A stretch of 64,000 nt of DNA, from NCBI GenBank assembly GCA_040387855.1, contig JAZKCY010000001.1, positions 910,922 to 974,921 of the forward strand, given 5' to 3'. The notes beneath the pieces were generated by a model, which saw only the letters and a program-made list of their open reading frames with translations, searched no databases and was not told the DNA's origin. Source of the DNA: Patescibacteria group bacterium (GTDB lineage Bacteria > Patescibacteriota > Minisyncoccia > Phycocordibacterales > JAKAEA01). This document shows positions 14,446-38,305 of the stretch, piece by piece; the stretch's first letter is position 1; the number at the start of each line of letters is the position of its first letter. Both the position numbers and the translations under genes were made by a program.

Positions 14446-14456
14446 TTATCACCATT

Positions 14457-20785: not shown

Positions 20786-20839
20786 GCGGTTTTAATAAAG
20801 TATATAAATTATTTGACGCCGCATTGATTTAACTCTTAC

Positions 20840-20875
20840 ACAACACAACAGCACATTTCTGTGCTGTTGTGTTGT
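20840..20875. other. Perfect 16-bp inverted repeat or hairpin in an intergenic region.
   Basis: ACAACACAACAGCACA-tttc-TGTGCTGTTGTGTTGT. It lies 55-90 nt upstream of the 19001 gene start and downstream of the 20911 gene. Confidence 0.45.
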
Positions 20876-20910
20876 TCTGTATTTTACTAATGTCTGAACG
20901 CCTGTATGAA

Positions 20911-23403
20911 TTAAGGATTTACGTAGATCGTAACATCTTTCTGTCCAATAACTTTCTGTTCAAGATCCTTGGCAATGAATGTGAATACATACGGACCATT
21001 ATCTTTCCAAGTCCATCCTGTAAAATCTACCCATGATTCTTTTGATGTACCGTCTTCACTTGAAACCATATCTACAAGTCCTCCCCCATCTACCTGCCAT
21101 GTGAGTGAATAATCTGCAGCATTTTTTCCGGTTACTCGTGCTTTAAGAAGATGTAAACCTTTCATTACCTGTCCTTCAGTTGGTTCACTTATTTCGAGAA
21201 TAGGTGTAACTGGTGGAGTAACTGGTGGTGTGGTTTGTGACACTACGGTGACTTCAATTGTATATGCAGCACCTGCTGTTCCAGTTCCTGCAGTTCCACT
21301 ATAAGGAACAACACGTACTGTGTGTTTCCCTAATGGAGCATTCCATTTATTGTAATTTGTACCTCCTAGATCGCCTCCAATTCCATATGGTGCATTTGTC
21401 TCAGTTGCGACTTTAACTCCATTGAGGAAGAAAACAAGGCTTCCAGGCTTAGATTTTAGATTGGGAACGATTGTTATATTTGGAGTTTCTGCAAGATTGA
21501 TAGTATCAGTTGCATTCAATACTCGAATTGGCTGATCAGTATCTGAATTGTAGAGTGAAAGTGATTCTATAACTGTGCCAGTTGTAGGTGGAGGAGGTGG
21601 TGGTGTTGTGCTCTTTGCAACAAAGGTTACATCAATAGAAAGAGATGTTCCTATACTTCCCGCTGCACCACTTTGTGAGTAAGGAGTAGCCTTGATTGTA
21701 TGCTTACCAAGTGGAGCACTCCATGGAGTATAATTTCCTCCTGCGTCAGTTCCTAATGCATATGGTGCAGCACTTTCTGTTCGAATAGTTTTACCATCAA
21801 CAAAGAATTTAACACTCTTTGTACCGGTGCCTGCAATTGCTTGGATATTCATTTCAGGATAATCAGCAAGAACCACAGTATCTCCTGTTTTTAATTCTCG
21901 TACCGGTTTGTCAGTCTTAGCATCAATCAACATGAATGCAGAAACCTTATTACCAGTAGGTGTAGTTGGTGGTGTAACAGGTGGAGTCACTGGAGGTGTT
22001 GGAGGAGTACCAGTTCCTTGTGGCACTACAAACGATACGACACTATTTCCCCAGTATAAATTCTTTGACCAATCATTTGAGAATACTCCCACTTTCACAA
22101 CATGCTTTCCTGTTGTTGTTGGGGTCCAATTCACAGTATATTGACCAGGCATACTATTTGAAATAGTTTGATGATCATATACTTGCTGAAAGACTAGCTG
22201 ATTTGATGCATTATAGATTTCAATATCAACAACAACATCTGATGCTGATTGTGAATTTGTAACTTTTACTGAAAGATTTGAGGCAGTATTCACTGGATTG
22301 ATAAGTCCAGATGCTGATGCTCCCCACACTCCTACAGGATTTGGATTACCGGTACCTTTGAACCACTCTGTCATTGTTTGCTGAGCCTTTTTGTTTTGAG
22401 GAGTGAAATGGTTTTCTGATGGCCCTCCAGTATTTGGATCAATGTTCCAGTTCCAAAGATGAACACCTTGCATATATGGCTTGCTATCCCAATATTTGAA
22501 CAATGCTTCATAGAGATTTGCTTGTTCTTGTTCATTTACATTTCCAGCACGACTTCCGTTCCATGGATCTGAATGTGCACCATCAACACTTCTGTATCCT
22601 ATTTCAGTAAAGACGATTGGTTTTTTATAAGTATCGTAAAGAGGCTTAATTTTAGTTGTATCCCATGTTTCCCATGACTTCATAAAACTATCTACTGTTC
22701 CTCCTGACAATGGGTAATATGCTGAAATTCCCAAGTAATCAAGTTTGTCCCAGAAAGCGATATGTGGTGCTTCTTCAGCAAAATCTCCTGCTCCCCAGTT
22801 TGCACTATAGGTAAGTAAACCAGAGTATCGTGCTCGAACATCAGCAATCATTTTCACCCATCGCTGAGTGTTGTCTGGATTTTCAGTGTAGGCAGCTACA
22901 TTAATGAGTTCTGTTCCAATACAAATCTCTTCAGCTTTTGTTTCCTGAGCAATTACAGCAAGTTTGTTCAACATAGCTCCATAACTTGCATACCAGGTAT
23001 TTCGATTTGTTGGTTTTATGAGAGCTCTCCATGTTCCTCCACGTGCTTCTATGTGTGGCTTAAGCATCACCATCATGCCCTGACTATGAACATAATTGAT
23101 AGCATCTTTGAGTGAGGCATCGGTAGGTGTATTCCATCCACTAAGAATCTCAGAACCAGAATTACCTTCTTGGTAATAAGTAACTACAAGAGACACGTAG
23201 TTTGCACCTGTAGATTTCAAATTTCGTACAGACTGCTTAAACTGTTCTCCTGAGAAGTCAGTTGTTGATAACGAATAAATACTGGCGCTTTTTTGCCAGT
23301 TTGAAATATCTGCCTGTGTATTATTTGCTAAAAAAGGCATATAAGAGGCCAAAAGACCTACAATTATAGCCGGAACCATCATTAAGACCATTATCTTTTT
23401 CAT
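20911..23403 (-). CDS. Secreted GH-A clan glycoside hydrolase, a paralog of the 19001 gene, with extra tandem beta-sandwich repeats.
   Basis: The N-terminal catalytic domain is colinear with the 19001 protein (IGTELINV, VFTEIGY). Two repeats of about 110 aa carry APY-x-LG-x-D-x-GG...W-x-APLGKHT. Pro/Thr linkers and the same C-terminal W-Q-V-D-G-G module follow. Confidence 0.7.
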   Translation of the reverse strand: MKKIMVLMMVPAIIVGLLASYMPFLANNTQADISNWQKSASIYSLSTTDFSGEQFKQSVRNLKSTGANYVSLVVTYYQEGNSGSEILSGWNTPTDASLKDAINYVHSQGMMVMLKPHIEARGGTWRALIKPTNRNTWYASYGAMLNKLAVIAQETKAEEICIGTELINVAAYTENPDNTQRWVKMIADVRARYSGLLTYSANWGAGDFAEEAPHIAFWDKLDYLGISAYYPLSGGTVDSFMKSWETWDTTKIKPLYDTYKKPIVFTEIGYRSVDGAHSDPWNGSRAGNVNEQEQANLYEALFKYWDSKPYMQGVHLWNWNIDPNTGGPSENHFTPQNKKAQQTMTEWFKGTGNPNPVGVWGASASGLINPVNTASNLSVKVTNSQSASDVVVDIEIYNASNQLVFQQVYDHQTISNSMPGQYTVNWTPTTTGKHVVKVGVFSNDWSKNLYWGNSVVSFVVPQGTGTPPTPPVTPPVTPPTTPTGNKVSAFMLIDAKTDKPVRELKTGDTVVLADYPEMNIQAIAGTGTKSVKFFVDGKTIRTESAAPYALGTDAGGNYTPWSAPLGKHTIKATPYSQSGAAGSIGTSLSIDVTFVAKSTTPPPPPPTTGTVIESLSLYNSDTDQPIRVLNATDTINLAETPNITIVPNLKSKPGSLVFFLNGVKVATETNAPYGIGGDLGGTNYNKWNAPLGKHTVRVVPYSGTAGTGTAGAAYTIEVTVVSQTTPPVTPPVTPILEISEPTEGQVMKGLHLLKARVTGKNAADYSLTWQVDGGGLVDMVSSEDGTSKESWVDFTGWTWKDNGPYVFTFIAKDLEQKVIGQKDVTIYVNP

Positions 23404-23487
23404 ATAGAGTAATAGACGCTATATGGCCGAGCTTCTTACAGCTTTTTAAAGATGAGGTTTTGATTAAGTAACCCTAAAAATAAGCAA

Positions 23488-23955
23488 TTATAGGCAGGTT
23501 ACATCATCCACAGCACTCAAACTTGAACCTGCAGTTACCTCAGCTTTTCCTAAATAATCCACACAATACAATCCACCGGGAGTAGACTTTAATGGGATTT
23601 CAATTGCCCACCCAGTAGAGGTGTCATTACATGTTGAGCTATCATAATTACCAATTGCATCTACAGATACTGATACATCAGAACTTTCAGCAGCAGCTGC
23701 ATTTACCATAGGATATATTCCCCCTACAGTTCCTTCTGTACAAATGGTGTCATAACTAAATTCGAAACCCGCATTATCTGTTGCAAATTGTTCTGCCTGA
23801 GTACGTGCACTTGCTAGATTAGTTTTTACCGCTGTATCACTTGCCTTACTTCGAGCAACATTAAGAGAAACTAAGATGACAGCAGATAAAAGACTTATTA
23901 TTGCAATAACTACTAAAAGTTCTATAAGAGTAAAACCGTTTTTATTTTTGCTCAT
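23488..23955 (-). CDS. Type IV pilin or pseudopilin with a prepilin-type N-terminal cleavage/methylation domain.
   Basis: MSKNKNG|FTLIELLVVIAIISLLSAV shows the G/F cleavage site and Glu at position +5. Confidence 0.8.
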   Translation of the reverse strand: MSKNKNGFTLIELLVVIAIISLLSAVILVSLNVARSKASDTAVKTNLASARTQAEQFATDNAGFEFSYDTICTEGTVGGIYPMVNAAAAESSDVSVSVDAIGNYDSSTCNDTSTGWAIEIPLKSTPGGLYCVDYLGKAEVTAGSSLSAVDDVTCL

Positions 23956-24001
23956 GTTTACTACATTATAAGACAATAAATTTTATTAACTAGGGATAAC
24001 A

Positions 24002-24031
24002 AAACCACTCATACTTGTATGAGTGGTTTTG
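24002..24031 (-). terminator. Intrinsic terminator downstream of the GH6 gene.
   Basis: AAAACCACTCATAC-ttg-TATGAGTGGTTTT, an 11-bp stem with A/T runs. Confidence 0.55.
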
Positions 24032-24062
24032 TGTTTATTAGTCGTTGCTACGAAATGTTGGT

Positions 24063-25961
24063 TTAGTATGCTGAACGCTTTGCAATATCGAGAGCATATT
24101 CTGGCCACCATTCCCCTGCATTTGGACCTCCGTTACAGTTTCCGTCAGATCCTCCAGGGCCCTTTACCCACAAGAATGCATCCACTAATGGATATCCGGT
24201 ATTTGTAGTCGGCTTTGCTCCGAGAGCTCGTCCCCATGGGTTACACCATTCATTGTTTGGTGCAGAACCAAGTCCGTTTCGGCCGGTATCAATTACGAAG
24301 TGCTTGCCTCCAACCTTATCTGAAACCTGAGTTCCGTACGCAATATTTTTCTGAGTGTCTACGAAGTTTGAAGTATTCAATGCGAATCCATCAGCTTGAG
24401 CAATACCTGCTTGCTTCAATCGATTTGCCATATCATCTGGTGTAATCCATCCAGGGTGACCGGCATCAATGTAGACTGAAATATTACCCTTTGATTTGAA
24501 TGTACTTACGGCATCTTTGATTAGTGAGAATCGTTCTGCTGTTCGTGATCCGAGACAATCAGTAAGTGTTGTACCATCTGGTTCAATTATCATTGCTGCT
24601 TTGTTTCCTCCAATTGCATCAGCAATTTTTCGAATCCAATTTCGATATTCATCTGCACTTCCCACTCCTCCGGCTGAGTACTGACCGCAGTCTCGTCCTG
24701 GAATATTGTAAGCTACAAATACAGGCATTGCTCCTTGAGCTTGTGCATCCTTAATTGCATTTTGCACATCTCGAGTAATATCCCAGTTCCATCCTCCAAG
24801 CCATGTCACACTTGCACCGTTCGCAATTTTCTTAAGCTGTTCTGCATCTGCAGGTCGTGAATTCTGCCATTGCTTAATAACTTGTGAAGCTTCATTATTT
24901 GGATTTACATACAACTTCTGACCACTAATAGGATTACCCGCTATAGCCTGCACAGGAGCCGTTACAGCTTGAGTAATAGTATTTACAACAGTAGCTGTTT
25001 GATTTTTTTTCTGAGTATCTGTTGGAGATACTGTTGGTGATGTAGTAACAAGTGCTGGCTTCGCCACAGTTACAGAACCTACAGACATACTTGTATCCTT
25101 AGTTGTAATTAAGTTTCCAGAATTATCTCTAACAACAAAAGTAATTGCGTATGGCCCAGAACCTTTCCAATTCCATGTAGATACATCTACAGAAGCTTCT
25201 TTGTGGTCACCCACGTTGTTCATTACTGTTTCTCCACCATTATCAACCTTCCAAGACATTTTGTAACTATCTGGAGTTGAATTATCAAGCTTTGCACTGA
25301 AGACAGTAACACCACCTACGGTTGAACCTGAAGTTGGAGCAATAACACTCACGGTTGAATATATTGCTGGAGGCGTGGTTGTTTGTGGTTGCTGAGTAGG
25401 AGCAGGTGCCTGAGCAGATGCTACAGGAACTCCTGCTGCTTGTAGCAATGCACTACCTACTGATGCAGATAATGTTGATGACGCTGCTTCTATTTGTACT
25501 GGGCCTTGTGGTGCATCAGGAGTACTGATTTCAATACTTGTTTCACCAAGTGAATTATTATTTTTATCTAATGCTTTAAAGGTAATCTTGTATGGACCAG
25601 ATCCTCGCCATGTCCATGACTTAAGATCTACCACAGCCTCCTTATGAGGATGATCTGTGTATGAATCATACATAGAATTCATCTGACCGTTATCTACTGA
25701 CCAAGACATAGTGTAATCAGAAACATTTTTGTCCTGTACCATTGCCTTGAATGTTTGTGTATCACCTATCTTTGCCCCCTGAGTTGGCCACCAAAGATTA
25801 ATGTTACCATCTGCGTTTACTCCCGTAGTAACAGTATGAGGGAGTATGTCAGATTTGTTTAACCACTCAAACGCATACACACCACCCAACCAAAGAACTG
25901 TTATTAAGAGAAGTTTTGAAGATAAAGAAAGTGCTTTTTTTAGAGACCTATTGTATATCAT
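24063..25961 (-). CDS. Glycoside hydrolase family 6 (cellulase/cellobiohydrolase-like) with two N-terminal W-x-VDNG modules.
   Basis: Both GH6 signatures are present: VFVAYNIPGRDCGQYSAGG and MIIEPDGTTL. A signal anchor and two copies of the shared 90-aa module lie at the N-terminus. Confidence 0.85.
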   Translation of the reverse strand: MIYNRSLKKALSLSSKLLLITVLWLGGVYAFEWLNKSDILPHTVTTGVNADGNINLWWPTQGAKIGDTQTFKAMVQDKNVSDYTMSWSVDNGQMNSMYDSYTDHPHKEAVVDLKSWTWRGSGPYKITFKALDKNNNSLGETSIEISTPDAPQGPVQIEAASSTLSASVGSALLQAAGVPVASAQAPAPTQQPQTTTPPAIYSTVSVIAPTSGSTVGGVTVFSAKLDNSTPDSYKMSWKVDNGGETVMNNVGDHKEASVDVSTWNWKGSGPYAITFVVRDNSGNLITTKDTSMSVGSVTVAKPALVTTSPTVSPTDTQKKNQTATVVNTITQAVTAPVQAIAGNPISGQKLYVNPNNEASQVIKQWQNSRPADAEQLKKIANGASVTWLGGWNWDITRDVQNAIKDAQAQGAMPVFVAYNIPGRDCGQYSAGGVGSADEYRNWIRKIADAIGGNKAAMIIEPDGTTLTDCLGSRTAERFSLIKDAVSTFKSKGNISVYIDAGHPGWITPDDMANRLKQAGIAQADGFALNTSNFVDTQKNIAYGTQVSDKVGGKHFVIDTGRNGLGSAPNNEWCNPWGRALGAKPTTNTGYPLVDAFLWVKGPGGSDGNCNGGPNAGEWWPEYALDIAKRSAY

Positions 25962-26876: not shown

Positions 26877-28733
26877 ATGAAAAAGATTATTGCCGGAATC
26901 ATTGTTTTCAGTTTTATATCAGTTAGCTTATTCGGTAATAATGCTCAAGCAGCCACAAAAACTACTGACTTACAAAAAAAGACTCCTCAAGTTGAAAGCA
27001 GTAGTGATCCTGAAGTACAGAGAGCCCCCACCCAAGAACTACGTGCTCAAGCCCGCTCAATCAATATTCAAGCACTACTTGCTCCTCAAGCAATAACAAC
27101 AACATCTCTCGGTCCCAATCTTATAGCTAATCCTGGATTCGAAAATGGAAGTCCATCACTTCCTACAAGCTGGCAAAAAAACCGTTGGTCAAACAACCTT
27201 GGTGCTTTCATGTATCCGGTTACTGGAATTGATGGATCAAAAGCCGCAAGTGTTTCAATTACTAGCTATACCGCAGGTGATGCAAAGTGGTTTTTTGCTG
27301 ATGTGCCTGTTACTGCTGGTAAAACATATGAATTTTCAAATTACTCTCAAGCGTCAATCAGTAGCATCCTAACAATAAGATACAAGATGACTGATGGTTC
27401 ATACACATACAAATATTTGAGCGCAGTTCCAGCACAATCTACATTCACTCAAAATAAATACACGATAATTGTTCCAACAAATGCAGTGGCAATGACAGTA
27501 TTTCATCTTATAGATAAAGTAGGAATATTAAGTGTAGACGATTATGAATTGCGAGAAGTAATTACAACAACAATTCCAGATCCCACTCCTACCCCATCTG
27601 AGAATCTTGTTCCCAATGGGAATCTAGAATCCCAGGCAACCAATGGTAATCCTACAGGCTGGAGTAAAAATCGTTGGGGAAATAATACAGGTTCGTTTAC
27701 CTATCCACTATCAGGAGTAAGTGGATCAAAGGCAGCTCGAGTAACAACAACAAGTTATACAACGGGAGATGCAAAGTGGTATTTTGAACCAGTAGCAGTA
27801 TCTGCTGGAACATATGAATATACCGATACCTACAGTTCAACTGTTCCTACAGAACTTACTGCACAATTCATTCACAAAGATGGAAGTATTACATACAAAT
27901 GGCTTGGTACAGCTCCGGTTACCACAGAATTCACCACGATAAAAAAATCTATAACAGTTACTGACAGTGTTGCAAAAGTCACTGTATTACATGTACTACC
28001 TGCAGTTGGTTTCCTGACGATAGATAATGTGAGTTTAGTAAAAGGATCAACTCCTACCCCACCGCCAACACTATTTAGTAATGGTGCTGTTAGCCTCACT
28101 TTTGATGATGGTTGGTTATCTCAATATCAAAACTCAGTTCCAAAAATGAACAGTGTAAACATGAAAGGTACTTTCTATGTAACAAGTCGCCAGCTTTCAG
28201 ATTTTGGATTTACGGGATTCTTTAGCAAAGATACTATCAAGACTATTTATGCTGATGGACATGAAATTGGATCTCATACGCAGACCCATCCTCACCTCAC
28301 TACGTTAAGTCAAACTCAACAGACAACCGAAATCCAAGGATCACGACAAGATCTTCTAGATCTAAATGTGGGACCAATTACTACTTTCGCCTACCCTTTT
28401 GGAGAATATAATGAGATCTCAATTCAAGCAGTAAAAAATAGTGGGTACTCATCAGCACGATCTACAATTGATGGCTATGCAACCGTAGGGACAGATAAAT
28501 ATCAGCTCCCCCGACAATCAGTAGAAGTAGATACATCAATAGAACAAATTCGGCAGTGGATCGATACAGCTATTGCAAATAAGCAGTGGCTCATCCTTGC
28601 ATTCCATAGAATAGATCAGAGCAATGATCAATATGCAGTAACACCAGCAAATTTTAATTTAATCATTGATTATCTTGCACAAAAGAATGCACGAGTTATC
28701 ACAGTAGACCAAGGAATTAAAGCTCTACAATAG
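26877..28733 (+). CDS. Secreted CBM4_9-CBM4_9-CE4 polysaccharide deacetylase.
   Basis: Two repeats of about 150 aa begin NPGFENGS / PNGNLESQ. The carbohydrate esterase family 4 (CE4) motifs follow in order: TFDDGW, HEIGSHTQTH, AYPFGEY and LAFHRI. Confidence 0.8.
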   Translation: MKKIIAGIIVFSFISVSLFGNNAQAATKTTDLQKKTPQVESSSDPEVQRAPTQELRAQARSINIQALLAPQAITTTSLGPNLIANPGFENGSPSLPTSWQKNRWSNNLGAFMYPVTGIDGSKAASVSITSYTAGDAKWFFADVPVTAGKTYEFSNYSQASISSILTIRYKMTDGSYTYKYLSAVPAQSTFTQNKYTIIVPTNAVAMTVFHLIDKVGILSVDDYELREVITTTIPDPTPTPSENLVPNGNLESQATNGNPTGWSKNRWGNNTGSFTYPLSGVSGSKAARVTTTSYTTGDAKWYFEPVAVSAGTYEYTDTYSSTVPTELTAQFIHKDGSITYKWLGTAPVTTEFTTIKKSITVTDSVAKVTVLHVLPAVGFLTIDNVSLVKGSTPTPPPTLFSNGAVSLTFDDGWLSQYQNSVPKMNSVNMKGTFYVTSRQLSDFGFTGFFSKDTIKTIYADGHEIGSHTQTHPHLTTLSQTQQTTEIQGSRQDLLDLNVGPITTFAYPFGEYNEISIQAVKNSGYSSARSTIDGYATVGTDKYQLPRQSVEVDTSIEQIRQWIDTAIANKQWLILAFHRIDQSNDQYAVTPANFNLIIDYLAQKNARVITVDQGIKALQ

Positions 28734-29709
28734 AGTAATCATCAAATTCAACATCCATAAAATCTGTACGAATGCCGGCATACCCGGCATTTGTTAATGG
28801 TGAGGGACCATACGACTCAGCTTTATCTTTTGTTTCAAGGACTAGACGCCAAACTCCGGTCTTACCTTCATCAACATAGAGACGAATAGTGACAGATGCA
28901 TCTTGATTAGTAATCACCTCACTTTTAACTCCTATCCATGTAGCAACTGGCAAAAGATTTGGTTCTGAATCTCGATCATATTTTTGATTCTTTGTACCAA
29001 ATATTTTCTTCATTGCCATCGTATAGTATGCGCCTTTAATTTTTTTCTTAATGACTGCAGCTCCATCAACTCGAATTCCTGTATAGTACAAATCATCACC
29101 TGTTTGATATCGGTTAAACAACAAGACTCCATTCGATGCATTTCGATTAGGGCTCTCACTTAGAATTAAAGAATTAATTTTAAAGTACGCTTGCTGAGTA
29201 AAATCACCCCATACATGAGTATTCACAAGACGAAAAATGTTTTGTGGGTGTGCACCATCATCAGTATCTTCTGGATTACTCCGAATATATCGCTTGTACC
29301 ACGCGTCAGAAGGAGCTAGGTCACCCTGAATTGTTTTGGCAGTTCCATTTGAAACATAGAGACGTCCCCCAGAATTGAGCCACCAATTTTTATTTGAACT
29401 TTTTGAAATCTTTGCTGATTCCTCGAGTGTTTGAGGCGTAAGAAAGGCATCAGAAAACATTCGTGGTTCAGACACAGAAGATGTAGGTTGTGGTCTTTGT
29501 AGTACTGCGATAGCTGAGGTAGCTGAAGCCGAATTTGGCAGACCATCTTCTTTTAGGAAATCTCCTCCCTCCAACTCATTAGATTCTGGATTTAATACTA
29601 TTACAGGTTTACTTTCTCTCGATAACAAAAATATAACTCCAATTCCAATGAAGACAAATAGAATATTAACGATAATGATGTTCTTATTCTTCATGCTATG
29701 CTTGAGCAC
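28717..29709 (-). CDS. Secreted hypothetical protein with a probable jelly-roll (ConA-like) C-terminal domain.
   Basis: It has an N-terminal transmembrane/signal segment and no named family. Its C-terminal region resembles the C-terminal domain of the 29728 protein. Confidence 0.45.
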   Translation of the reverse strand: MLKHSMKNKNIIIVNILFVFIGIGVIFLLSRESKPVIVLNPESNELEGGDFLKEDGLPNSASATSAIAVLQRPQPTSSVSEPRMFSDAFLTPQTLEESAKISKSSNKNWWLNSGGRLYVSNGTAKTIQGDLAPSDAWYKRYIRSNPEDTDDGAHPQNIFRLVNTHVWGDFTQQAYFKINSLILSESPNRNASNGVLLFNRYQTGDDLYYTGIRVDGAAVIKKKIKGAYYTMAMKKIFGTKNQKYDRDSEPNLLPVATWIGVKSEVITNQDASVTIRLYVDEGKTGVWRLVLETKDKAESYGPSPLTNAGYAGIRTDFMDVEFDDYSIVEL

Positions 29710-29727: not shown

Positions 29728-31278
29728 CTAAAAAGCTGGTGCGATAGTGAGACTAGAAACCTCAGAATGAGCTGTAGACATGAGATCCCATATCTTAATT
29801 CCTGCTTTACCTCCCTTCTGTTTAATACTTACATTTCTAAAGAGATGATACCCATTTACATACGTAGTAATTTTGCCGTTTTTTATTTCAACTTTAAATT
29901 CAATAGGTTTATCAGTAACTCGGGTTGATGTAAAAGGTGGAACCAAATCTTTTGTAACACCCTGCACTGTACTTCGCAGGAAATAATAATTACCACTCAA
30001 ACCAAACGCAACATAATTTTGTGCGTCTTTATAGTAAAGCAATAATCCTGTAGAGGCTCCTTGTATACGATCTATATTTGCTGTAACTGAATAATTTTCC
30101 CAATAGTCTTCACCAAAAAGCACCTTTCCACTTTGATCTGGTTCTATAGTTTTTATATGTAGCCCAGTTTCCTGAATTGTAACTTCAGCATCTGTTACCC
30201 CATTTTGAGGAATAACAAAATTAGTATTTGCATAGACAAGGTCTGGTGATATTGGAGCTTGGCTATGAAGTATCTTCACAAGATCAAGCGCAGACATATT
30301 TTTAACTTCTATTCTTCGAATGAAATATGGATCTGTATCTTTATAGTTGTAAACTGGCAGTCGCAATGTTGTTACATTTGAAGGGTCATTGGCTTCGATA
30401 AATGCCATCTTAAAATACTTTCTAATCACCTTTTGGTTAAATGGGATAGCCTCTTCATAGTTTGTATGTTCTTGCTGACCATAATCATTTAATGGAATAG
30501 CATAATATTGAGCATCTAATCCTAGATTGATTTTAATATCTTGAAGTCCAGCAAGATAGTCGGCTTCTACTCGTGCCTCAAATTCTTCTGTTGTCTCAAG
30601 TCGATTCTTATCTTCTAAATACATTTTTGAATTTAGGAATCTTCCCCAATCTTCTTCATCTGATGCATTTTTAACAAGAGGAATCTCTGCATGTGAATCA
30701 CGTCCATGGGCTTCGATCTCCCATCTTCCAGAGTCTCGAAGTGTTCTCAAATCATTCCAATCCAAATAGAATGGATCTTTGTTATTAGCTTTTGCTGTAG
30801 CAACAAACATTGTTGCTTTGAAATTCAGTTTCTTTAAAACATCATCAGTTGTGTAATAACTATCTTTTCGGCCATCATCAAAACTAATGATTATAGGCTT
30901 TGGAGGAAGCGTAAATGTTCCCTGTCGGAATTGATCGTATTCAGCTACTGATATTGTGGTAAAACCACTTTGCTTTAATAGCTCCAGCTGCTGGATAAAA
31001 TTCTTTATTGTTGTATTTGTGTCATCCTTTACAGTATTTACGCCGTGATACATAAGCATTGGTACCGCTAATGCAGGAGATGACGACACACTCTGTACTT
31101 CAATATTGGCAAACACACGTGGCTTGTAGGTGTAATACTCAATTGAATATGGGTTGAGCTTTCTCAACGTATTTTGAGCCTCTGGGTAAAAAGCATTAAT
31201 CGAAATACCAATACTTACAATAAGTACTACACATAATACTAATCTAAACCACGGTGAATGTTTTATCGGGTGCCCCAT
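29728..31278 (-). CDS. Membrane-anchored CE4 polysaccharide deacetylase (PgaB/NodB-like) with a C-terminal ConA-like domain.
   Basis: The CE4 motifs are MLMYHGV, IISFDDGRKDSY and EAHGRDSH. It overlaps the upstream GT2 gene by 16 nt, which indicates translational coupling. Confidence 0.75.
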   Translation of the reverse strand: MGHPIKHSPWFRLVLCVVLIVSIGISINAFYPEAQNTLRKLNPYSIEYYTYKPRVFANIEVQSVSSSPALAVPMLMYHGVNTVKDDTNTTIKNFIQQLELLKQSGFTTISVAEYDQFRQGTFTLPPKPIIISFDDGRKDSYYTTDDVLKKLNFKATMFVATAKANNKDPFYLDWNDLRTLRDSGRWEIEAHGRDSHAEIPLVKNASDEEDWGRFLNSKMYLEDKNRLETTEEFEARVEADYLAGLQDIKINLGLDAQYYAIPLNDYGQQEHTNYEEAIPFNQKVIRKYFKMAFIEANDPSNVTTLRLPVYNYKDTDPYFIRRIEVKNMSALDLVKILHSQAPISPDLVYANTNFVIPQNGVTDAEVTIQETGLHIKTIEPDQSGKVLFGEDYWENYSVTANIDRIQGASTGLLLYYKDAQNYVAFGLSGNYYFLRSTVQGVTKDLVPPFTSTRVTDKPIEFKVEIKNGKITTYVNGYHLFRNVSIKQKGGKAGIKIWDLMSTAHSEVSSLTIAPAF

Positions 31279-32567
31279 GTTGTGTCTCTTAATTTAAATA
31301 CTGCATACGGCATTTGCCAGACTAAAGCGAATGTATACATAACAGTAAACGGAACTACATACCACCAATACTTATTATTTGATTGCCAGTAGTAAAACAA
31401 TCCATACACGAAGCTTAGTGATACAACGCCAATCAAGAATACATACGGCATTTGTTGATTCAATAAAATCTGTATTACTAATGCATTGAGTACTATAAAC
31501 GGACTAAATATTGGGAGTAACAAGTTTGTGTAGAAAGAAAGTGAGGCAATAATATTCTTTCTCCAAATAAAAGATGATGCCGCTAAACCTTCTCTGACCC
31601 ATGATTTCTTCCAACGAAGCTGTTGCTTAAAAAACTTTCGATATTTATCTGGCACAATAGTAACTGCCTTTGCAGTACTGCAATATACAACCTTCCAATT
31701 TCTAAGCACAAAGTTTGTGAGACTTCGATCATCACCAAATGTACTTCGCGTTCCCATAAACATTTGATTTCGCCATTTATCCAAAACAGTAAGCAATATA
31801 GTACGTCGATACGCAGAAAAACATCCAGGGCAGCACGTTACCGTACCAAACACACTCTCACATGCTTTGAATATATCAAATGAAACACCATATCGAGCTG
31901 ACTGCATCTTGGTTAGCGCATTTGTAGAATCATTGTCTACTCCAGTATTTCCTGCTACAGCACCAACCATAGAATCTTCTAAAAAGTGCTCCACAAGATG
32001 CTTAACTGCTGTCTTTTCAAGAAAGCTATCTGAATCCACAAATACAACTATTTCTCCAGTTGCAGCTAAAATTCCTTCTGCCATACCTTCACGCTTCCCT
32101 CGATTTTTTGCAAAAGAAATAACATTTACTGATACTCCTTTATTTTTATAAAATTCATGTGCCCGCTCCATTTCAGCTTTCGTTTTATCGGTAGAGCCAT
32201 CATCTACCGCAATGCATTCTAACGTTCCAGGATATGCAGATTGCATACAGGTCTCAATAGTTTTGTATATAGAATCCTCTTCGTTTTTTGCGGCAATTAC
32301 AAAACTCACACTTGGATATAGTGTGTCTGCATATTTTTTATAATGAGCATCTTTATAAAAAATAATAATAAGAAATCGTGATGTAAGAAAGAATCCTGTA
32401 AGGATGATATAAATCTTAACTAAAATAAACTGACTACCTCCCAGAAGCAACGTGAATTTATAAATAAAGAGAACATGAAGTAATACAAGAAACACAGCCA
32501 AAACAAACATCTTCTTTACAGAAGAAAAAGGAGATAGTAAACGTGGGAGAATTGCTTGTAGAGTCAT
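31263..32567 (-). CDS. Processive GT2 of the HasA/NodC class (hyaluronan/chitin-oligosaccharide/PNAG synthase-like).
   Basis: VSFVIAAKNEE...IAVDDGSTD is followed by CCPGCFSAYRR, FGDDRSLTNF and KQQLRWKKSW (QxxRW). The order and spacing parallel HasA and NodC, and transmembrane helices sit at both ends. Confidence 0.8.
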   Translation of the reverse strand: MTLQAILPRLLSPFSSVKKMFVLAVFLVLLHVLFIYKFTLLLGGSQFILVKIYIILTGFFLTSRFLIIIFYKDAHYKKYADTLYPSVSFVIAAKNEEDSIYKTIETCMQSAYPGTLECIAVDDGSTDKTKAEMERAHEFYKNKGVSVNVISFAKNRGKREGMAEGILAATGEIVVFVDSDSFLEKTAVKHLVEHFLEDSMVGAVAGNTGVDNDSTNALTKMQSARYGVSFDIFKACESVFGTVTCCPGCFSAYRRTILLTVLDKWRNQMFMGTRSTFGDDRSLTNFVLRNWKVVYCSTAKAVTIVPDKYRKFFKQQLRWKKSWVREGLAASSFIWRKNIIASLSFYTNLLLPIFSPFIVLNALVIQILLNQQMPYVFLIGVVSLSFVYGLFYYWQSNNKYWWYVVPFTVMYTFALVWQMPYAVFKLRDTTWGTR

Positions 32568-32573
32568 GGGAGA

Positions 32574-33320
32574 TTAGGCTGTTTTCCCTACTACTTCCTG
32601 AGGTGCTTTCATATTTACTGCGGCATAGTCTGCATTAGCTTTTTTAATTCGCTCAGCAGATAAGCTATTTAGTAAGTGTGAATTCTGAACCACACAGTGT
32701 CCTCCAATCGGACCATCCATGTATTTGAGGTAGGGTCGTACTACCTCTTTTCGACCTAGTTCTTGATACCCTTCATTATAACTGGCATTAAATTCTTTAT
32801 AGACAATATCAAAATCAAGTCCATTTTCCTCACAATATGCATGAATCTCTTTATTAAGAAGGATCATTACTCCATACTGAGTTGTATCCCAGAGCTTTGC
32901 AGCTTCGGTATCTTCTTGTCGAGATGTACACTTTGTTTTTACCCCTTTCGCCTCAAAAAGTGCTGCAGCTTCCTCGGCTCGTTCTCCACCAAAAAACTTC
33001 ACAAAAGTTCTAATTCCTTTTGCTAAATGAGGATGAACACCACGAATTGGAGAATGCACGGCGTTAAGTCCTCGTGACGTACCTAGGGGTACAGTTGAGT
33101 GAATTATTATTAAATCAGGAGTGAATTTGGTTTTATACTCATTTATAAGTGCCGCAAAATCATAATGTGCAGGATTATATGGAATAGCAATATGCATTAC
33201 ATCATAATGACCTTCTGCAATTACACCTTTATACGGATCATGACCGTCACACCCTAAGACTTCCCGAACCGCTCCTCCTACTTCCCCAAGCCCTACGACT
33301 ATTTGTGTTAAATTATTCAT
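32574..33320 (-). CDS. Short Rossmann-fold NAD(P)-binding protein resembling the N-terminal and central part of UDP-glucose/GDP-mannose dehydrogenases.
   Basis: VVGLGEVGGAV is a GxGxxG Rossmann motif. DVMHIAIP and IIIHSTVPLGTS are UGDH-like strands. GGHC is a Cys-motif candidate. The C-terminal UDP-binding domain of true UGDH is missing. Confidence 0.35.
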   Translation of the reverse strand: MNNLTQIVVGLGEVGGAVREVLGCDGHDPYKGVIAEGHYDVMHIAIPYNPAHYDFAALINEYKTKFTPDLIIIHSTVPLGTSRGLNAVHSPIRGVHPHLAKGIRTFVKFFGGERAEEAAALFEAKGVKTKCTSRQEDTEAAKLWDTTQYGVMILLNKEIHAYCEENGLDFDIVYKEFNASYNEGYQELGRKEVVRPYLKYMDGPIGGHCVVQNSHLLNSLSAERIKKANADYAAVNMKAPQEVVGKTA

Positions 33321-33420
33321 ATAATGAGTATTGTTGAGACTACCTTTAATAAGGACCCCATACTACAACACATTCTAAAAAAAGCAAGTACCGGTCTCGA
33401 CTACCACTATATTTTATGGT

Positions 33421-34077: not shown

Positions 34078-34638
34078 TTACTTAGAAAATCGAAGCTTAA
34101 TTCCAATCACCAATGCGAGCGCTACGAATGTAGAAAATGCCATCCAAGGGATAGTAATGTAACCAAATTCAACAAATGGAATCTGAGAACATGAAACTCC
34201 AGTTGCAATACATGCATCCAAAAGACTTGGATTAAACATTTGGCCGTAATAGTGGAAACCTGTTACAAGCACCCCCATGATAGAGAAAACCAATGCATAA
34301 ATATAAACAGCACTATCTGTTATCTTATATTTCCATGATCTAAACCATGCTACAAAAAAGAGTACTGCCTGAGGGAATAATAGAATTCGTGCCCACCAAC
34401 AGAATTCACATGGAATGAAGCCAATCACTGATGAATAGATGAGACTGCCTATAGTTCCTCCTATTGCAATAAGAGCAGAAAGTACCAAAGCATGTGAAGC
34501 AATTTTACTGCCAAGATCTTTATTTTTTTTATCAGGAGTTCCAAGCACTAAGATCCACAGTAAAATCACACTGAGAATATTTAATACGACAACACCTAAC
34601 GAAATAACAAATGTAATGTTTTGTGCGAATGGTGTCAT
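34078..34638 (-). CDS. Disulfide bond formation protein B (DsbB/BdbC family).
   Basis: PCEFCWWARILLFPQAVL is the BdbC CxxCWxxR motif. The protein has 4 transmembrane helices. Confidence 0.65.
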   Translation of the reverse strand: MTPFAQNITFVISLGVVVLNILSVILLWILVLGTPDKKNKDLGSKIASHALVLSALIAIGGTIGSLIYSSVIGFIPCEFCWWARILLFPQAVLFFVAWFRSWKYKITDSAVYIYALVFSIMGVLVTGFHYYGQMFNPSLLDACIATGVSCSQIPFVEFGYITIPWMAFSTFVALALVIGIKLRFSK

Positions 34639-34655
34639 AAATAATATACCTAAAC

Positions 34656-35150
34656 TTATTGAACTTTAAGAGTTGTAGTTGCTGTAGAAGTAGCACCTGA
34701 AGTTGCCGATGAAGAAGTTGTTGAAGTACCTGTAATTACATCTGCACTTGTGCCTCCAGAAAGTTCTGCCGGAAGTGGACAACTAGTTTTTTCTGAAAGC
34801 TGCTGGAGTGAAAGTTCTCCCTTGAGGATAGAACCATCTTTGAAGATCCATGTTGGATAGGTATCAATTCCCTTTTCAATACAAATAGGAAGCTGTCCTT
34901 TTCCATCTGGAGTTGAACATTCTACGTATGGAAGATTATCCTTTGAAGATCCAAATAGTTTCTTTGTAGCTTGGCAGTGTGGACACCAGAAAGCTCCGTA
35001 AAAAGTTGCTCCTTCATCTTTAAGACACTGAGTAAATGCACTGAGATCAACACGTGATGCTGGGTTTTGAGCTCGATATGTAATAAATATAAAAATCCCT
35101 AACAATGCAGCAATGCCGACAACAAATCCTATAATGTGTTTTGTTTCCAT
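34656..35150 (-). CDS. Membrane-anchored thioredoxin-fold thiol-disulfide oxidoreductase (DsbA/BdbD-like).
   Basis: The WCPHCQ (CxxC) active site is present, with an N-terminal transmembrane anchor and an S/T-rich tail. Confidence 0.65.
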   Translation of the reverse strand: METKHIIGFVVGIAALLGIFIFITYRAQNPASRVDLSAFTQCLKDEGATFYGAFWCPHCQATKKLFGSSKDNLPYVECSTPDGKGQLPICIEKGIDTYPTWIFKDGSILKGELSLQQLSEKTSCPLPAELSGGTSADVITGTSTTSSSATSGATSTATTTLKVQ

Positions 35151-37810: not shown

Positions 37811-38305
37811 TCACGAATCTTTATTCTGTTGCTTGAATTTTTCCACGTCTTCAACTAATTTTTTCAAATCAGTATAAATAGTATGAAGTGTTGTTTGTTG
37901 ATCGAGCGGTAACACATCAGTGTGGTGAATTTCACTAATTTCCCCAACATCATCCTGAATTTCATCGACGTCTTCTTGGATCTCATCAACGTCTTCCTGA
38001 ATTTCGTCGATATCCTCTTGAATTTCATCCACATCTTCCTGGATCTCATCAATACCTTCCTCAACGTTTTTAATTACTTCCGATTGACTGTTGATTGTCA
38101 TCTGAATAAACAGTGCTAGATAGATAGCTTCGAGTGACACTCCCGTCGTGAGCGTAAGTAAAACAGTGTCGATAGGCACACCAAAACGTATAGAAGCAAA
38201 GCTCGCAATAAAAATAATCGTGTGTATAACGATTGATGAAGGAGAACCAAGCCATCGAGTAAATTTTAAGGCGATCTTCTCAAATGGGCTTGGAGTATTA
38301 CTCAT
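37811..38305 (-). CDS. Membrane protein with C-terminal acidic heptad tandem repeats (DUF1003-like N-terminus).
   Basis: The N-terminus is a 2-TM helix region. It is followed by five or more tandem copies of EDVDEIQ. Confidence 0.5.
   Translation of the reverse strand: MSNTPSPFEKIALKFTRWLGSPSSIVIHTIIFIASFASIRFGVPIDTVLLTLTTGVSLEAIYLALFIQMTINSQSEVIKNVEEGIDEIQEDVDEIQEDIDEIQEDVDEIQEDVDEIQDDVGEISEIHHTDVLPLDQQTTLHTIYTDLKKLVEDVEKFKQQNKDS
37925..38045. repeat. Tandem 21-bp coding repeats, about six imperfect copies.
   Basis: gacgtcttcttggatctcatc-like units repeat in the DNA. They encode the (E/D)(D)(V/I)DEIQ heptads of the 37811 protein. Confidence 0.6.

Follow-up and report, generated by a model that had tools for sequence, protein, structure and literature searches.

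A probable exopolysaccharide operon of a Patescibacteria bacterium, headed by a shortened sugar dehydrogenase

Four co-oriented genes lie on the minus strand between positions 33320 and 28717 of the window, the 64,000-nucleotide stretch of DNA that was analysed. They encode, in order, a short dehydrogenase of 248 residues (V4519_05130, 32574..33320); a membrane-embedded, processive-type GT2 synthase of 434 residues, which belongs to the group formed by hyaluronan synthases (HAS), NodC and chitin synthases (V4519_05125, 31263..32567); a CE4 ecto-deacetylase of 516 residues (29728..31278); and p330, which is 330 residues long, or 325 from the NCBI start (V4519_05115, 28717..29709). According to the list of open reading frames, the dehydrogenase gene ends 6 nt upstream of the synthase gene, the synthase and deacetylase genes overlap by 16 nt, and a gap of 18 nt precedes p330. 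An earlier sequence-only reading of this DNA had described the first three genes and the 16-nt overlap, which the list bears out, but had missed p330, which is part of the same unit. The motifs quoted in that reading are all present in the translations: VDDGSTD, CCPGCFSAYRR, FGDDRSLTNF and KQQLRWKKSW in the synthase, (MY)HGV, SFDDGRKD and EAHGRDSH in the deacetylase, and GGHC in the 248-residue protein. Every gene of the operon has hundreds to thousands of homologues, which rules out chance reading frames. A second, secreted CE4 deacetylase of 618 residues is encoded convergently on the plus strand (26877..28733), and its 3′ end overlaps that of p330 by 17 nt. The intergenic stretch of 100 nt in front of the first gene (33321..33420, minus strand) contains three sigma-70-like matches; the number of such matches across the whole region is not above shuffled expectation, so that this candidate promoter region marks a position only. 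The organism itself is a bacterium with a tiny genome.

The overlap between synthase and deacetylase (31263..31278, minus strand) falls within the last codons of the synthase, ACA TGG GGC ACC CGA TAA, which encode W-G-T-R and stop. The deacetylase ATG combines the final base of the codon before Trp with TG from the Trp codon itself, so that the protein begins MGHP. The same overlap recurs in related loci across several phyla, with ATG as the start codon in 15 and GTG or TTG in 10 more, and is also found in the called genes of loci L001 and L176.

The deacetylase scores 45 bits against Polysacc_deac_1 and 71.6 bits against the PgaB model, and matches BpsB (5bu6) with an E value of 1.3e-11. Its residues H78, D134, D135, H191 and H196 align with His55, Asp114, Asp115, His184 and His189 of PgaB, so that all five catalytic or metal residues are kept. 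Together with a single N-terminal transmembrane anchor, this upholds the earlier description of a membrane-anchored CE4 enzyme. The ConA-like C-terminal domain was also correctly recognised: its profile matches the CBM66 of Bacillus subtilis levanase (4azz) with an E value of 1e-5.

The synthase consists of N-terminal transmembrane helices, a GT-A domain, C-terminal transmembrane helices and a terminal WGTR. It scores 94.7 bits against Glycos_transf_2 and 91.8 bits against Chitin_synth_2; among NCBIfam models NodC fits best, over the full model length and at 183.9 bits (cutoff 550), and the PgaC_IcaA model gives 149.9 bits. In a neighbour-joining tree it falls in a separate clade, sister to HasA, NodC and the Chlorella virus HAS (CvHAS), with PgaC as outgroup, and every catalytic motif aligns. 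By tblastn it is 30.9% identical to B. anthracis HasA and 27.9% to NodC, while PgaC matches span only about 59% of the query. The proposed assignment to a HasA/NodC class therefore stands as regards grouping and motifs; orthology to HasA, NodC or PgaC is ruled out by NCBIfam scores that are all far under cutoff. The closest solved structure is CvHAS (7sp7, 1e-32), and scores against the PDB are about 117 bits for HAS and about 36 bits for chitin synthases; the switch-loop motif PGxFSAYR, however, is shared with chitin synthases and is not HAS-like. In CvHAS, Lys177 and Arg341 read the GlcA carboxylate (PMC12987647). A motif alignment indicates that their equivalents are kept in the synthase, but they are kept in NodC and PgaC as well, and so have no bearing on specificity.

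The short dehydrogenase, which is predicted to be cytoplasmic and has no transmembrane segment, pairs a Rossmann with a helical domain; the two are homologous to the first two domains, N-terminal and central, of nucleotide-sugar 6-dehydrogenases. Its AlphaFold2 model has a pLDDT of 95, and the top Foldseek matches are UDP-Glc and UDP-ManNAc dehydrogenases. Comparison with full-length dehydrogenases using hhalign gave probabilities of 95–97% and brought the catalytic Lys and Cys into register. This confirms the homology to UDP-glucose dehydrogenase (UGDH) proposed earlier, and rules out an enzyme of the ketopantoate reductase type. The protein nevertheless falls under every Pfam and NCBIfam threshold, the only Pfam match being to the UDPG_MGDP_dh central domain at 19.5 bits (cutoff 25.4), and its family carries no existing annotation. 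The family comprises 1530 homologues (1436 clusters at 50% identity, nearly all of 215–260 residues), is found in Patescibacteria and in phages, where it is abundant, and has the invariant residues GxGxxG, D28, H74-S75, R93, H96, K142, T146 and G206-G207-H208-C209. The gene had been described as truncated and anomalous, but 248 residues is full length for this family: the 120 homologues listed are all 213–271 residues long, and the C-terminal domain that binds UDP in all characterised relatives is absent from every family member listed. The gene is thus intact and not broken, and its product appears to represent a new, shortened type of sugar dehydrogenase. It had also been called HasB-like, which holds for the family, but it is closer to UDP-ManNAc and UDP-GlcNAc dehydrogenases (WecC, TviB), with which it shares the GGHC motif, than to UDP-glucose dehydrogenase. 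The active site of UGDH is changed, with HSPIRGVHP in place of the PEFLREG loop, Thr in place of Asn and Asn in place of Asp; these changes and the missing UDP-binding domain suggest that the substrate may be something other than a UDP-sugar.

The fourth protein, p330, has an N-terminal transmembrane anchor, a disordered linker and an extracytoplasmic ConA-like β-jelly-roll, the core of which is predicted by AlphaFold2 with a pLDDT above 90. It has 1768 homologues; among the 120 listed, no Pfam domain covers the family and every name given by the source is “hypothetical protein”. No sequence relatives were found in the PDB. Foldseek matches CBM66 best, with L-type lectins, DUF1080, GH16 and PL14/20 next in rank, and p330 may be a polymer-binding protein, a hydrolase or a lyase. 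The convergent 618-residue deacetylase contains a signal peptide, two repeats of about 170 residues and a canonical NodB-type CE4 domain (Polysacc_deac_1 92.7 bits; HfsH model 98 bits). Homologues are likewise placed convergently in L001, L010, L011, L032 and L176 and lie elsewhere in the locus in L026, L048, L065, L079 and L080; this enzyme is probably an accessory of the module.

Genomes of at least 572 species, spread over many phyla, encode relatives of the synthase. A CE4 gene of the PgaB/IcaB kind lies directly downstream in 67 of 78 related loci; p330 is present in 42 of the 78, usually right after the CE4 gene, and GH18 in 14, the two occurring together in only one. Loci L001 and L011 have a four-gene order identical to that of the window, the distant lineage L178 has short dehydrogenase, synthase, CE4 and GH18, with the dehydrogenase gene overlapping the synthase start, and a plasmid of the cultured Paenibacillus cellulositrophicus carries CE4, synthase, CE4 and GH18. 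In 24 of 68 related loci, the gene directly upstream of the synthase, in the same orientation, encodes a full-length TIGR03026 dehydrogenase, closest to UDP-ManNAc dehydrogenase and TviB. This is the position that the short dehydrogenase takes here; it strongly supports the analogy to hasAB drawn earlier, and leads us to read the short protein as a minimal dehydrogenase feeding the synthase. Counting both forms, a co-oriented dehydrogenase is directly upstream in about 37% of synthase loci, across phyla. About 60% have no adjacent dehydrogenase, and none adjoins the synthase in the close operon relatives L176, L010 and L012–L023, so that the loci do not demonstrate a requirement for uronic acid as a building block.

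Class I HAS systems (streptococcal, the hasA-hasB-hasC of B. anthracis pXO1, and Chlorella virus HAS) resemble the present one in having a single membrane GT2 with D, DxD, GDDR, QxxRW and terminal WGTR; HasA has the same size and end point, and has operons place a co-oriented gene of the nucleotide-sugar 6-dehydrogenase family beside the synthase. They differ in that our synthase shares only about 31% identity with HasA, falls outside the HasA clade and has a chitin-synthase-like switch loop, and in that the dehydrogenase gene here comes before that of the synthase and encodes the N-acetylhexosamine or the short type instead of a UDP-glucose dehydrogenase. The window operon has no galU/hasC, and its obligatory coupling to an ecto-deacetylase is not known from any has operon. 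In pgaABCD and icaADBC the synthase and CE4 genes also adjoin (with an 8-nt overlap between pgaC and pgaB in E. coli), and our deacetylase has in common with PgaB and IcaB the order His…Asp-Asp…His-x4-His and a site of action outside the membrane; but the gene order is reversed, the synthase is not PgaC-like, PgaD/IcaD and the PgaA porin are absent here, and the second domain of the deacetylase is CBM66-like rather than GH153. NodC, at 28% identity, is about as distant as HasA and likewise has a CE4 partner; NodB, however, is a small cytoplasmic enzyme encoded upstream, whereas the partners here are ectoproteins, NodA is absent, and NodC has GEDR and WLSR. Fungal chitin synthases are QxxRW enzymes sharing PGxFSAYR, which extrude a GlcNAc polymer that extracellular CE4 enzymes convert to chitosan, but they are much larger, unlinked and eukaryotic. 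Finally, the UDP-glucose/GDP-mannose dehydrogenases (Ugd, HasB, WecC, Cap5O, TviB, WbpA) share with the short protein its two domains, the KSTVPxGT-like strand, the catalytic Lys, the GG(H)C Cys and the genomic slot; it differs from them in lacking their C-terminal domain, in the replaced loop and in the abundance of its family in phages.

We consider it rather probable that these four tightly packed genes are a single operon, by which this Patescibacteria bacterium makes an extracellular polysaccharide of the synthase-dependent kind. With NAD+, Cys209 and Lys142, the short dehydrogenase would convert an N-acetylhexosamine donor, for which UDP-GlcNAc and UDP-ManNAc are the likeliest candidates, to a uronic acid by oxidation at the C6 alcohol, through chemistry like that of UGDH, WecC and TviB but in a minimal two-domain enzyme. 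In favour of such a role, phage genes of this family lie within sugar-nucleotide modules, and one of the encoded proteins carries a hexapeptide acyltransferase domain as a fusion. The synthase, whose class is clear, would polymerise UDP-GlcNAc, possibly alternating with the uronic acid, into a β-linked chain exported through its own membrane channel, as in class I hyaluronan synthases and chitin synthases. Outside the membrane, the anchored deacetylase, started within the last Trp codon of the synthase, would grip the emerging chain through its CBM66-like domain and remove some of the N-acetyl groups. p330 would then bind, trim or organise the polymer, a role that the chitinase-family GH18 enzyme would take over in other lineages, and the convergent CE4 may deacetylate it further.

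A possible but clearly less favoured explanation is that the synthase makes a plain β-1,4-GlcNAc homopolymer which the two CE4 enzymes turn into a chitosan-like product, the dehydrogenase being merely co-located and serving another sugar or glycan. The switch loop, the linkage of two deacetylases to the module, the use of GH18 as the alternative fourth gene (in 14 loci, in L178 and in Paenibacillus) and the many loci lacking an adjoining dehydrogenase, close relatives among them, all fit this. However, the recurrence of the dehydrogenase upstream of the synthase across phyla, and its overlap with the synthase start in L178, are hard to explain other than by a functional link, and the synthase scores far higher overall against HAS structures than against chitin synthases. 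We regard it as rather unlikely that the substrate of the dehydrogenase is a free sugar, or one not carried by UDP, such as ManNAc from a hydrolysing 2-epimerase or an intermediate of the nonulosonic acid type, its product decorating the polymer or another surface glycan. On this view the absence of the UDP-binding domain from all members listed would be accounted for. The phage genes lie beside those for 4,6-dehydratase, aminotransferase and NeuC/PseF-type enzymes, and these neighbours point to chemistry other than that proposed above. In phage locus L177 the order is NeuC-type hydrolysing epimerase, short dehydrogenase and PseF-like cytidylyltransferase, and LegB- and LegC-like neighbours occur in 26 and 22 of 80 viral loci, about a quarter to a third. 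Against this, canonical UDP-sugar dehydrogenases fill the equivalent slot in synthase loci, and the window ORFs checked for family, which include all operon neighbours, yielded no cytidylyltransferase, NeuB-like synthase or epimerase.

Patescibacteria are typically episymbionts, and the synthase could be imagined to make short chito-oligosaccharides that, after deacetylation and release, would act on a host cell as signals. The full-length match to NodC as best NCBIfam model, and a size and C-terminal end as in NodC and HasA, agree with this, but the score is far below the NodC cutoff, cytoplasmic partners of the NodA and NodB types are absent, and the terminal WGTR is that of HAS and chitin synthases rather than the WLSR of NodC. 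The deacetylase and p330 are moreover membrane-anchored ectoproteins with carbohydrate-binding domains, which fits an exported polymer, and we think such signalling improbable. A PNAG (β-1,6-GlcNAc) system of the pga/ica type is more improbable still, and PNAG is the least likely of the chitosan-, PNAG- and hyaluronan-like products. The deacetylase is PgaB/IcaB-like in sequence and residue order, and the PgaC_IcaA model does match the synthase; but PgaC, which lacks GDDR and WGTR, lies outside the synthase clade and aligns with only part of it, the deacetylase has no GH153 domain, and GH18 partners suit β-1,4 linkages.

The arrangement of synthase, CE4 and then p330 or GH18 is a widespread conserved module, not specific to the Patescibacteria genome described here. 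Its core is apparently unstudied despite being so widespread, a literature search having found no paper on the module or on the short dehydrogenase family. The polymer may be chitin- or chitosan-like, or one containing N-acetyl-hexosaminuronate.

ORF calling confirmed the three minus-strand genes that the sequence-only reading had proposed: a 248-residue dehydrogenase-like protein at 33320–32574 (shortDH), a 434-residue glycosyltransferase at 32567–31263 (GT2) and a 516-residue carbohydrate esterase family 4 deacetylase at 31278–29728 (CE4). The shortDH and GT2 genes are 6 nt apart, and GT2 and CE4 overlap by 16 nt, as had been read. A fourth co-oriented ORF (29709–28717), encoding a membrane-anchored ConA-like protein of 330 residues (p330), lies 18 nt past CE4, and its 3′ end is overlapped by a convergent plus-strand gene (26877–28733) for a second, secreted deacetylase of 618 residues. 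Identical proteins occur under the tags V4519_05115 (p330) and V4519_05130 (shortDH) in a "Patescibacteria group bacterium" MAG, annotated as hypothetical or as "glycosyltransferase". The window has a G+C content of approximately 38% and contains no tRNA or Rfam matches; in a promoter and terminator scan, promoter matches were not above shuffled expectation. The best-supported reading is that the four genes form a synthase-dependent operon whose product, a GlcNAc-based polymer, is exported and then loses part of its N-acetyl groups outside the cell, and in which a minimal dehydrogenase replaces the usual full-length one. The operon belongs to a module that is widespread and apparently uncharacterised. 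The earlier interpretation stands in part, but was too narrow: there are four genes and the module is widespread. ShortDH is complete rather than truncated.

Pfam analysis of GT2 identified Glycos_transf_2 (94.7 bits) and Chitin_synth_2 (PF03142, 91.8 bits, above a gathering threshold of 27), although the latter match is not specific for chitin synthases because the model also hits hyaluronan synthases (HAS; PMC5122149). The closest solved structures are the Chlorella-virus and Xenopus hyaluronan synthases (approximately 1e-32), with chitin synthases (approximately 3e-8) and BcsA (approximately 5e-5) far behind. GT2 was aligned with twelve members of its family and with HasA, NodC, E. coli PgaC and a fragment of CvHAS; the motifs VDDGS, DSDS, GDDR and QQLRWKKSW and the final residues WGTR all align. 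The class I HAS motifs (D, DxD, G(D/E)DR and QxxRW) are present in order together with the C-terminal WGTR, in agreement with CvHAS, B. anthracis HasA and NodC. In a simple neighbor-joining tree of the same set, drawn without support values, the GT2 family stands apart as a clade whose sister group is HasA/NodC/CvHAS, and PgaC is the outgroup. The HasA/NodC-class assignment proposed earlier holds, since the motifs align and the protein groups beside HasA, NodC and CvHAS; judged by its sequence, GT2 is a synthase of the HAS/NodC/CHS type that is the orthologue of no named one.

The 516-residue protein has a Polysacc_deac_1 domain (PF01522) scoring 45 bits against a threshold of 23.1. Its residues H78, D134, D135, H191 and H196 align on H55, D114, D115, H184 and H189 of E. 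coli PgaB, which in that enzyme are the catalytic acid, catalytic base and metal triad. The protein thus has the features of a CE4 enzyme: the domain above threshold, the catalytic Asp, the Asp-His-His metal triad and the catalytic His. One N-terminal hydrophobic segment is predicted as a membrane anchor. The ConA-like C-terminal domain had been recognised correctly: the C-terminal 215 residues, used as a profile, match CBM66 of the B. subtilis levanase (E 1e-5). The CE4 ATG consists of the base preceding the Trp codon of the invariant WGTR of GT2 and the first two bases of that codon. Fifteen related loci, drawn from several phyla, share this 16-nt overlap and its ATG, and a further 10 have the overlap with GTG or TTG as the start.

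The top NCBIfam model for GT2 is NodC (TIGR04242), which matches end to end and could point to a Nod-factor-like product, but at 183.9 bits the score is below the equivalog cutoff of 550. When GT2 was searched against plasmids with tblastn, Rhizobium NodC (27.9% identity, 91% coverage) was about equal to B. anthracis pXO1 HasA (30.9%, 87%), and GT2 is not inside the HasA/HAS clade of the tree. There are no nodA or nodB neighbours in the window and, in contrast to the R. etli nodABC locus, the CE4 partner here is a 516-residue ectoenzyme; we consider a Nod-factor-like product unlikely. The same is true of a PNAG system, for which the deacetylase provides some likeness: it is matched by the PgaB model (71.6 bits, N-terminal domain only) and by BpsB (5bu6, 1.3e-11). 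The score is however below the PgaB equivalog cutoff (TIGR03938, 321.9 bits), as is that of GT2 for PgaC/IcaA (TIGR03937, 149.9 versus 422.3 bits); the tblastn match to PgaC spans only about 59% of the length of GT2; and PgaB carries a C-terminal GH153 domain where the 516-residue protein has a CBM66-like domain instead.

The 248-residue protein had been described as a truncated UGDH-like gene. Its relation to UGDH was borne out, and the truncation was not: 248 residues is the norm of a family of uniform length and strong conservation, which rules out a truncated gene or pseudogene. A word-index search found 1530 homologues, 213–271 residues long among the 120 matches listed, and an exhaustive HMMER search found 1436 clusters at 50% identity, 631 of them below 1e-30, with nearly all of the 150 matches listed being 215–260 residues long. 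The UGDH C-terminal domain (PF03720) is absent from shortDH, which ends approximately 40 residues past the catalytic Cys, and from the 150 listed family representatives. Longer members were considered as possible carriers of a C-terminal UDP-binding domain; the few scanned proved to have an HNH/HTH homing-endonuclease-like tail or a hexapeptide acyltransferase domain fused on instead. Six members (P0395, P0451, P0459, P0463, P0470 and P0493) are fused to, or run on into, such HTH and HNH-type tails, which fits a phage setting.

Among 45 family sequences the invariant residues include GxGxxG, Asp28, His74-Ser75, Arg93, His96, Lys142, Thr146 and Gly-Gly-His-Cys209, followed by Asn213. K142 and C209 align with the catalytic Lys and Cys of the UDP-glucose/GDP-mannose dehydrogenase family. 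The AlphaFold model (pLDDT 95) is closest in Foldseek to UDP-glucose and UDP-ManNAc dehydrogenases (TM-score approximately 0.7 on the query), with 3-hydroxyisobutyrate dehydrogenases (HIBADH) a near second. Pfam and NCBIfam matches are below threshold or absent (no PF03721; PF00984 19.5 against 25.4; TIGR03026 17.9 against 189.8), and the family member P0470 reaches 26.2 bits for PF00984. By hhalign, the family profile matches Ugd/HasB/WecC at 95% probability and 26 full-length dehydrogenases from GT2 loci at 97%, with HSTVPxGT falling on KSTVPxG and IGGHC on GVGGHC. The profile alignment and the Lys and Cys motifs favour the nucleotide-sugar dehydrogenases over a ketopantoate reductase or HIBADH-type identity. 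Differences from UGDH lie in the PEFLREG loop, Asn and Asp, all of which are replaced in shortDH (Asn by Thr146 and Asp by Asn213).

A full-length nucleotide-sugar dehydrogenase lies directly upstream of GT2, on the same strand, in 24 of the 68 loci with enough upstream sequence to be counted. These enzymes exceed the TIGR03026 cutoff and are nearest to UDP-ManNAc dehydrogenase and TviB, being less like UDP-glucose dehydrogenases. ShortDH occupies the same slot in the window and in the related loci L001/L002 and L011. It is also there, overlapping the GT2 start, in L178, an unrelated GH18-type version of the module, whose GT2 is 42% identical to that of the window and whose CE4 is 29% identical with the same two-domain build. 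The 64-kb window encodes no canonical nucleotide-sugar dehydrogenase of this family. In close relatives, among them L176 with a GT2 73% identical to that of the window, GT2 has no dehydrogenase gene beside it. Because shortDH shares the slot of the full-length dehydrogenases and recurs in L178, we think that it probably supplies substrate to the synthase. Two Patescibacteria loci encode a different short nucleotide-sugar dehydrogenase of 290–307 residues near the GT2 module (L001:3086–3958 and L039:7917–8840). It has the N-terminal and central domains recognised by Pfam, along with the UGDH active-site motifs SPEFL, K...N and GGHCFIKD in canonical form, and no C-terminal domain; loss of the C-terminal domain seems to be recurrent among the dehydrogenases of Patescibacteria GT2 loci.

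The shortDH family is also found in phages, with 270 hits in IMG/VR. Its phage neighbours include LegB/RmlB-like 4,6-dehydratases (26 of 80 loci) and LegC/PseC-like aminotransferases (22 of 80), as well as methyltransferases, glycosyltransferases and PIG-L-like enzymes. An Arn-like pathway (UGDH, decarboxylase and aminotransferase) was rejected, as the phage SDRs score as LegB/RmlB-type 4,6-dehydratases and not as UDP-GlcA decarboxylases. On one phage contig, which also carries a terminase and Dam, shortDH lies between a NeuC-type enzyme (a hydrolysing UDP-GlcNAc 2-epimerase) and a PseF-like cytidylyltransferase, followed by a 2-hydroxyacid dehydrogenase (L177:4359–7533); no NeuB-like synthase was seen within this segment. 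An N-acetylhexosamine substrate would be consistent with these phage neighbours. So would a free sugar, which would neatly account for the missing UDP-binding domain, a domain that to our knowledge is present in all characterised relatives of shortDH.

The p330 family comprises at least 1768 proteins. Among the 120 matches listed, every source-given name is "hypothetical protein" and no Pfam domain covers the family; PDB and Pfam searches with the p330 sequence were empty. The AlphaFold model consists of a transmembrane helix, a disordered linker and a β-jelly-roll (core pLDDT above 90), for which Foldseek ranks CBM66 first, then L-type lectins, DUF1080 hydratases, GH16 glucanases and PL14/PL20 lyases. 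Because this modelled ConA-like fold is generic, the predicted role may be either binding or catalytic. Both p330 and the C-terminal domain of CE4 resemble CBM66; a direct relationship was not adopted, hhalign being weak and inconsistent (48% in one run, 8% in another). The family also occurs as proteins of approximately 545–640 residues (P0242–P0252, L001:4761–6680 and L026:4777–6486), the last two with a duplicated ConA-like domain, and additional paralogues flank the module in several loci.

In a scan of one genome per species, GT2 relatives were found in at least 572 genomes, spanning Patescibacteria, Methylococcales, Acidobacteriota, Nitrospirota, Verrucomicrobiota, Actinomycetota and others. 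ORFs were called in the best 80 GT2 loci and searched with the window proteins. The same kind of CE4 lies directly downstream of GT2 in 67 of 78 loci; p330 is present in 42, a GH18 in 14 and the second-deacetylase type in 8, with p330 and GH18 together in only one locus. Carriers of the module include many Patescibacteria lineages, Methylocaldum, Crenothrix, Holophaga foetida and a Rhodococcus strain, as well as MAGs of Acidobacteriota, Nitrospirota, Verrucomicrobiota and Lentisphaerota. In Paenibacillus cellulositrophicus, a cultured species, the arrangement CE4-GT2-CE4-GH18 is plasmid-borne. Proteobacterial, acidobacterial and Nitrospirota loci (L024–L064) have GT2, a CE4 of approximately 650 residues, and then a giant protein of 1270–1450 residues (for example L031:13813–17871 and L035:15284–19315) with a second CE4m-like domain inside. 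Our full-text literature search found no published description of the module or of the shortDH family, and no described product. The chitin synthases that PMC5122149 describes from bacteria form another set, derived by horizontal gene transfer and with different neighbours (DUF1501/DUF1800).

The surrounding region looks like a glycan island. On the plus strand at 13249–17490 is a second synthase-type polysaccharide cluster, encoding in this order a BcsZ-like GH8 (398 residues), a cellulose-synthase-like GT2 (515 residues, Cellulose_synt match) and a PMT_2 membrane protein (501 residues). Minus-strand genes at 19001–25961 encode two GH113 proteins (594 and 830 residues) and one GH6 protein (632 residues), all three large, with a signal or anchor segment at the N terminus and with Ig-like/filamin-like repeat segments in common; in L048 the module is followed 0.7 kb downstream by a GH6 homologue. 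Also on the minus strand are a 164-residue membrane protein with a tandem acidic heptad-like repeat, EEGIDEIQEDVDEIQEDIDEIQEDVDEIQEDVDEIQDDVGEISE (37811–38305), and, at 34078–35150, a pair noted by eye: a secreted or anchored thioredoxin-like protein (CPHC, 164 residues) and a multi-pass membrane protein (CEFC, 186 residues), which from their motifs look like a disulfide-bond-forming pair.

GH18 enzymes require an N-acetyl group beside the cleaved bond. This requirement, together with the CE4, argues for a GlcNAc-containing product, most likely β-1,4-linked. The chain could be either chitin/chitosan-like, or alternatively contain N-acetyl-hexosaminuronate. One local feature of GT2 leans toward chitin synthases: the segment ESVFGTVTCCPGCFSAYRR in its switch loop corresponds to ESxFGFxxVLPGAFSAYR in the enzymes of P. 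sojae and yeast, where HAS enzymes have C-x-G-P-L-G-x-Y. The CvHAS residues that read the GlcA carboxylate, Lys177 and Arg341 (the QxxRW Arg; PMC12987647), were considered as a test of a uronic-acid donor and of the alternating UDP-GlcNAc/UDP-GlcA use of HAS, and are uninformative because their equivalents are conserved in NodC and PgaC too. We tentatively offer a joint proposal, which we regard as possible though on balance doubtful: that shortDH is a minimal UDP-HexNAc 6-dehydrogenase lacking the UDP-binding domain; that the module, dehydrogenase-GT2-CE4-(ConA-like or GH18), makes an undescribed, partly de-N-acetylated β-linked GlcNAc/N-acetyl-hexosaminuronate polymer in Patescibacteria and many other phyla; and that phages have taken up the mini-enzyme to serve glycan pathways of their own.

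If this is true, the two-fold oxidation chemistry of UGDH would fit into two-thirds of the usual protein, and the shortDH family would account for a gene position that lacks annotation in many glycan modules of phages. Synthase-dependent exopolysaccharide systems are few and well catalogued (cellulose, alginate, PNAG, Pel and hyaluronan), and the module appears to be one more. It can be tested in the cultured strains that carry it, which are Paenibacillus cellulositrophicus KACC 16577, Methylocaldum sp. GT1BB, Holophaga foetida DSM 6591 and the Rhodococcus strain. The joint proposal would imply an acidic or zwitterionic chitosan-like coat in Patescibacteria and many other phyla. Patescibacteria live attached to host cells, and a chitosan- or glycosaminoglycan-like polymer on their surface could be relevant to that attachment.
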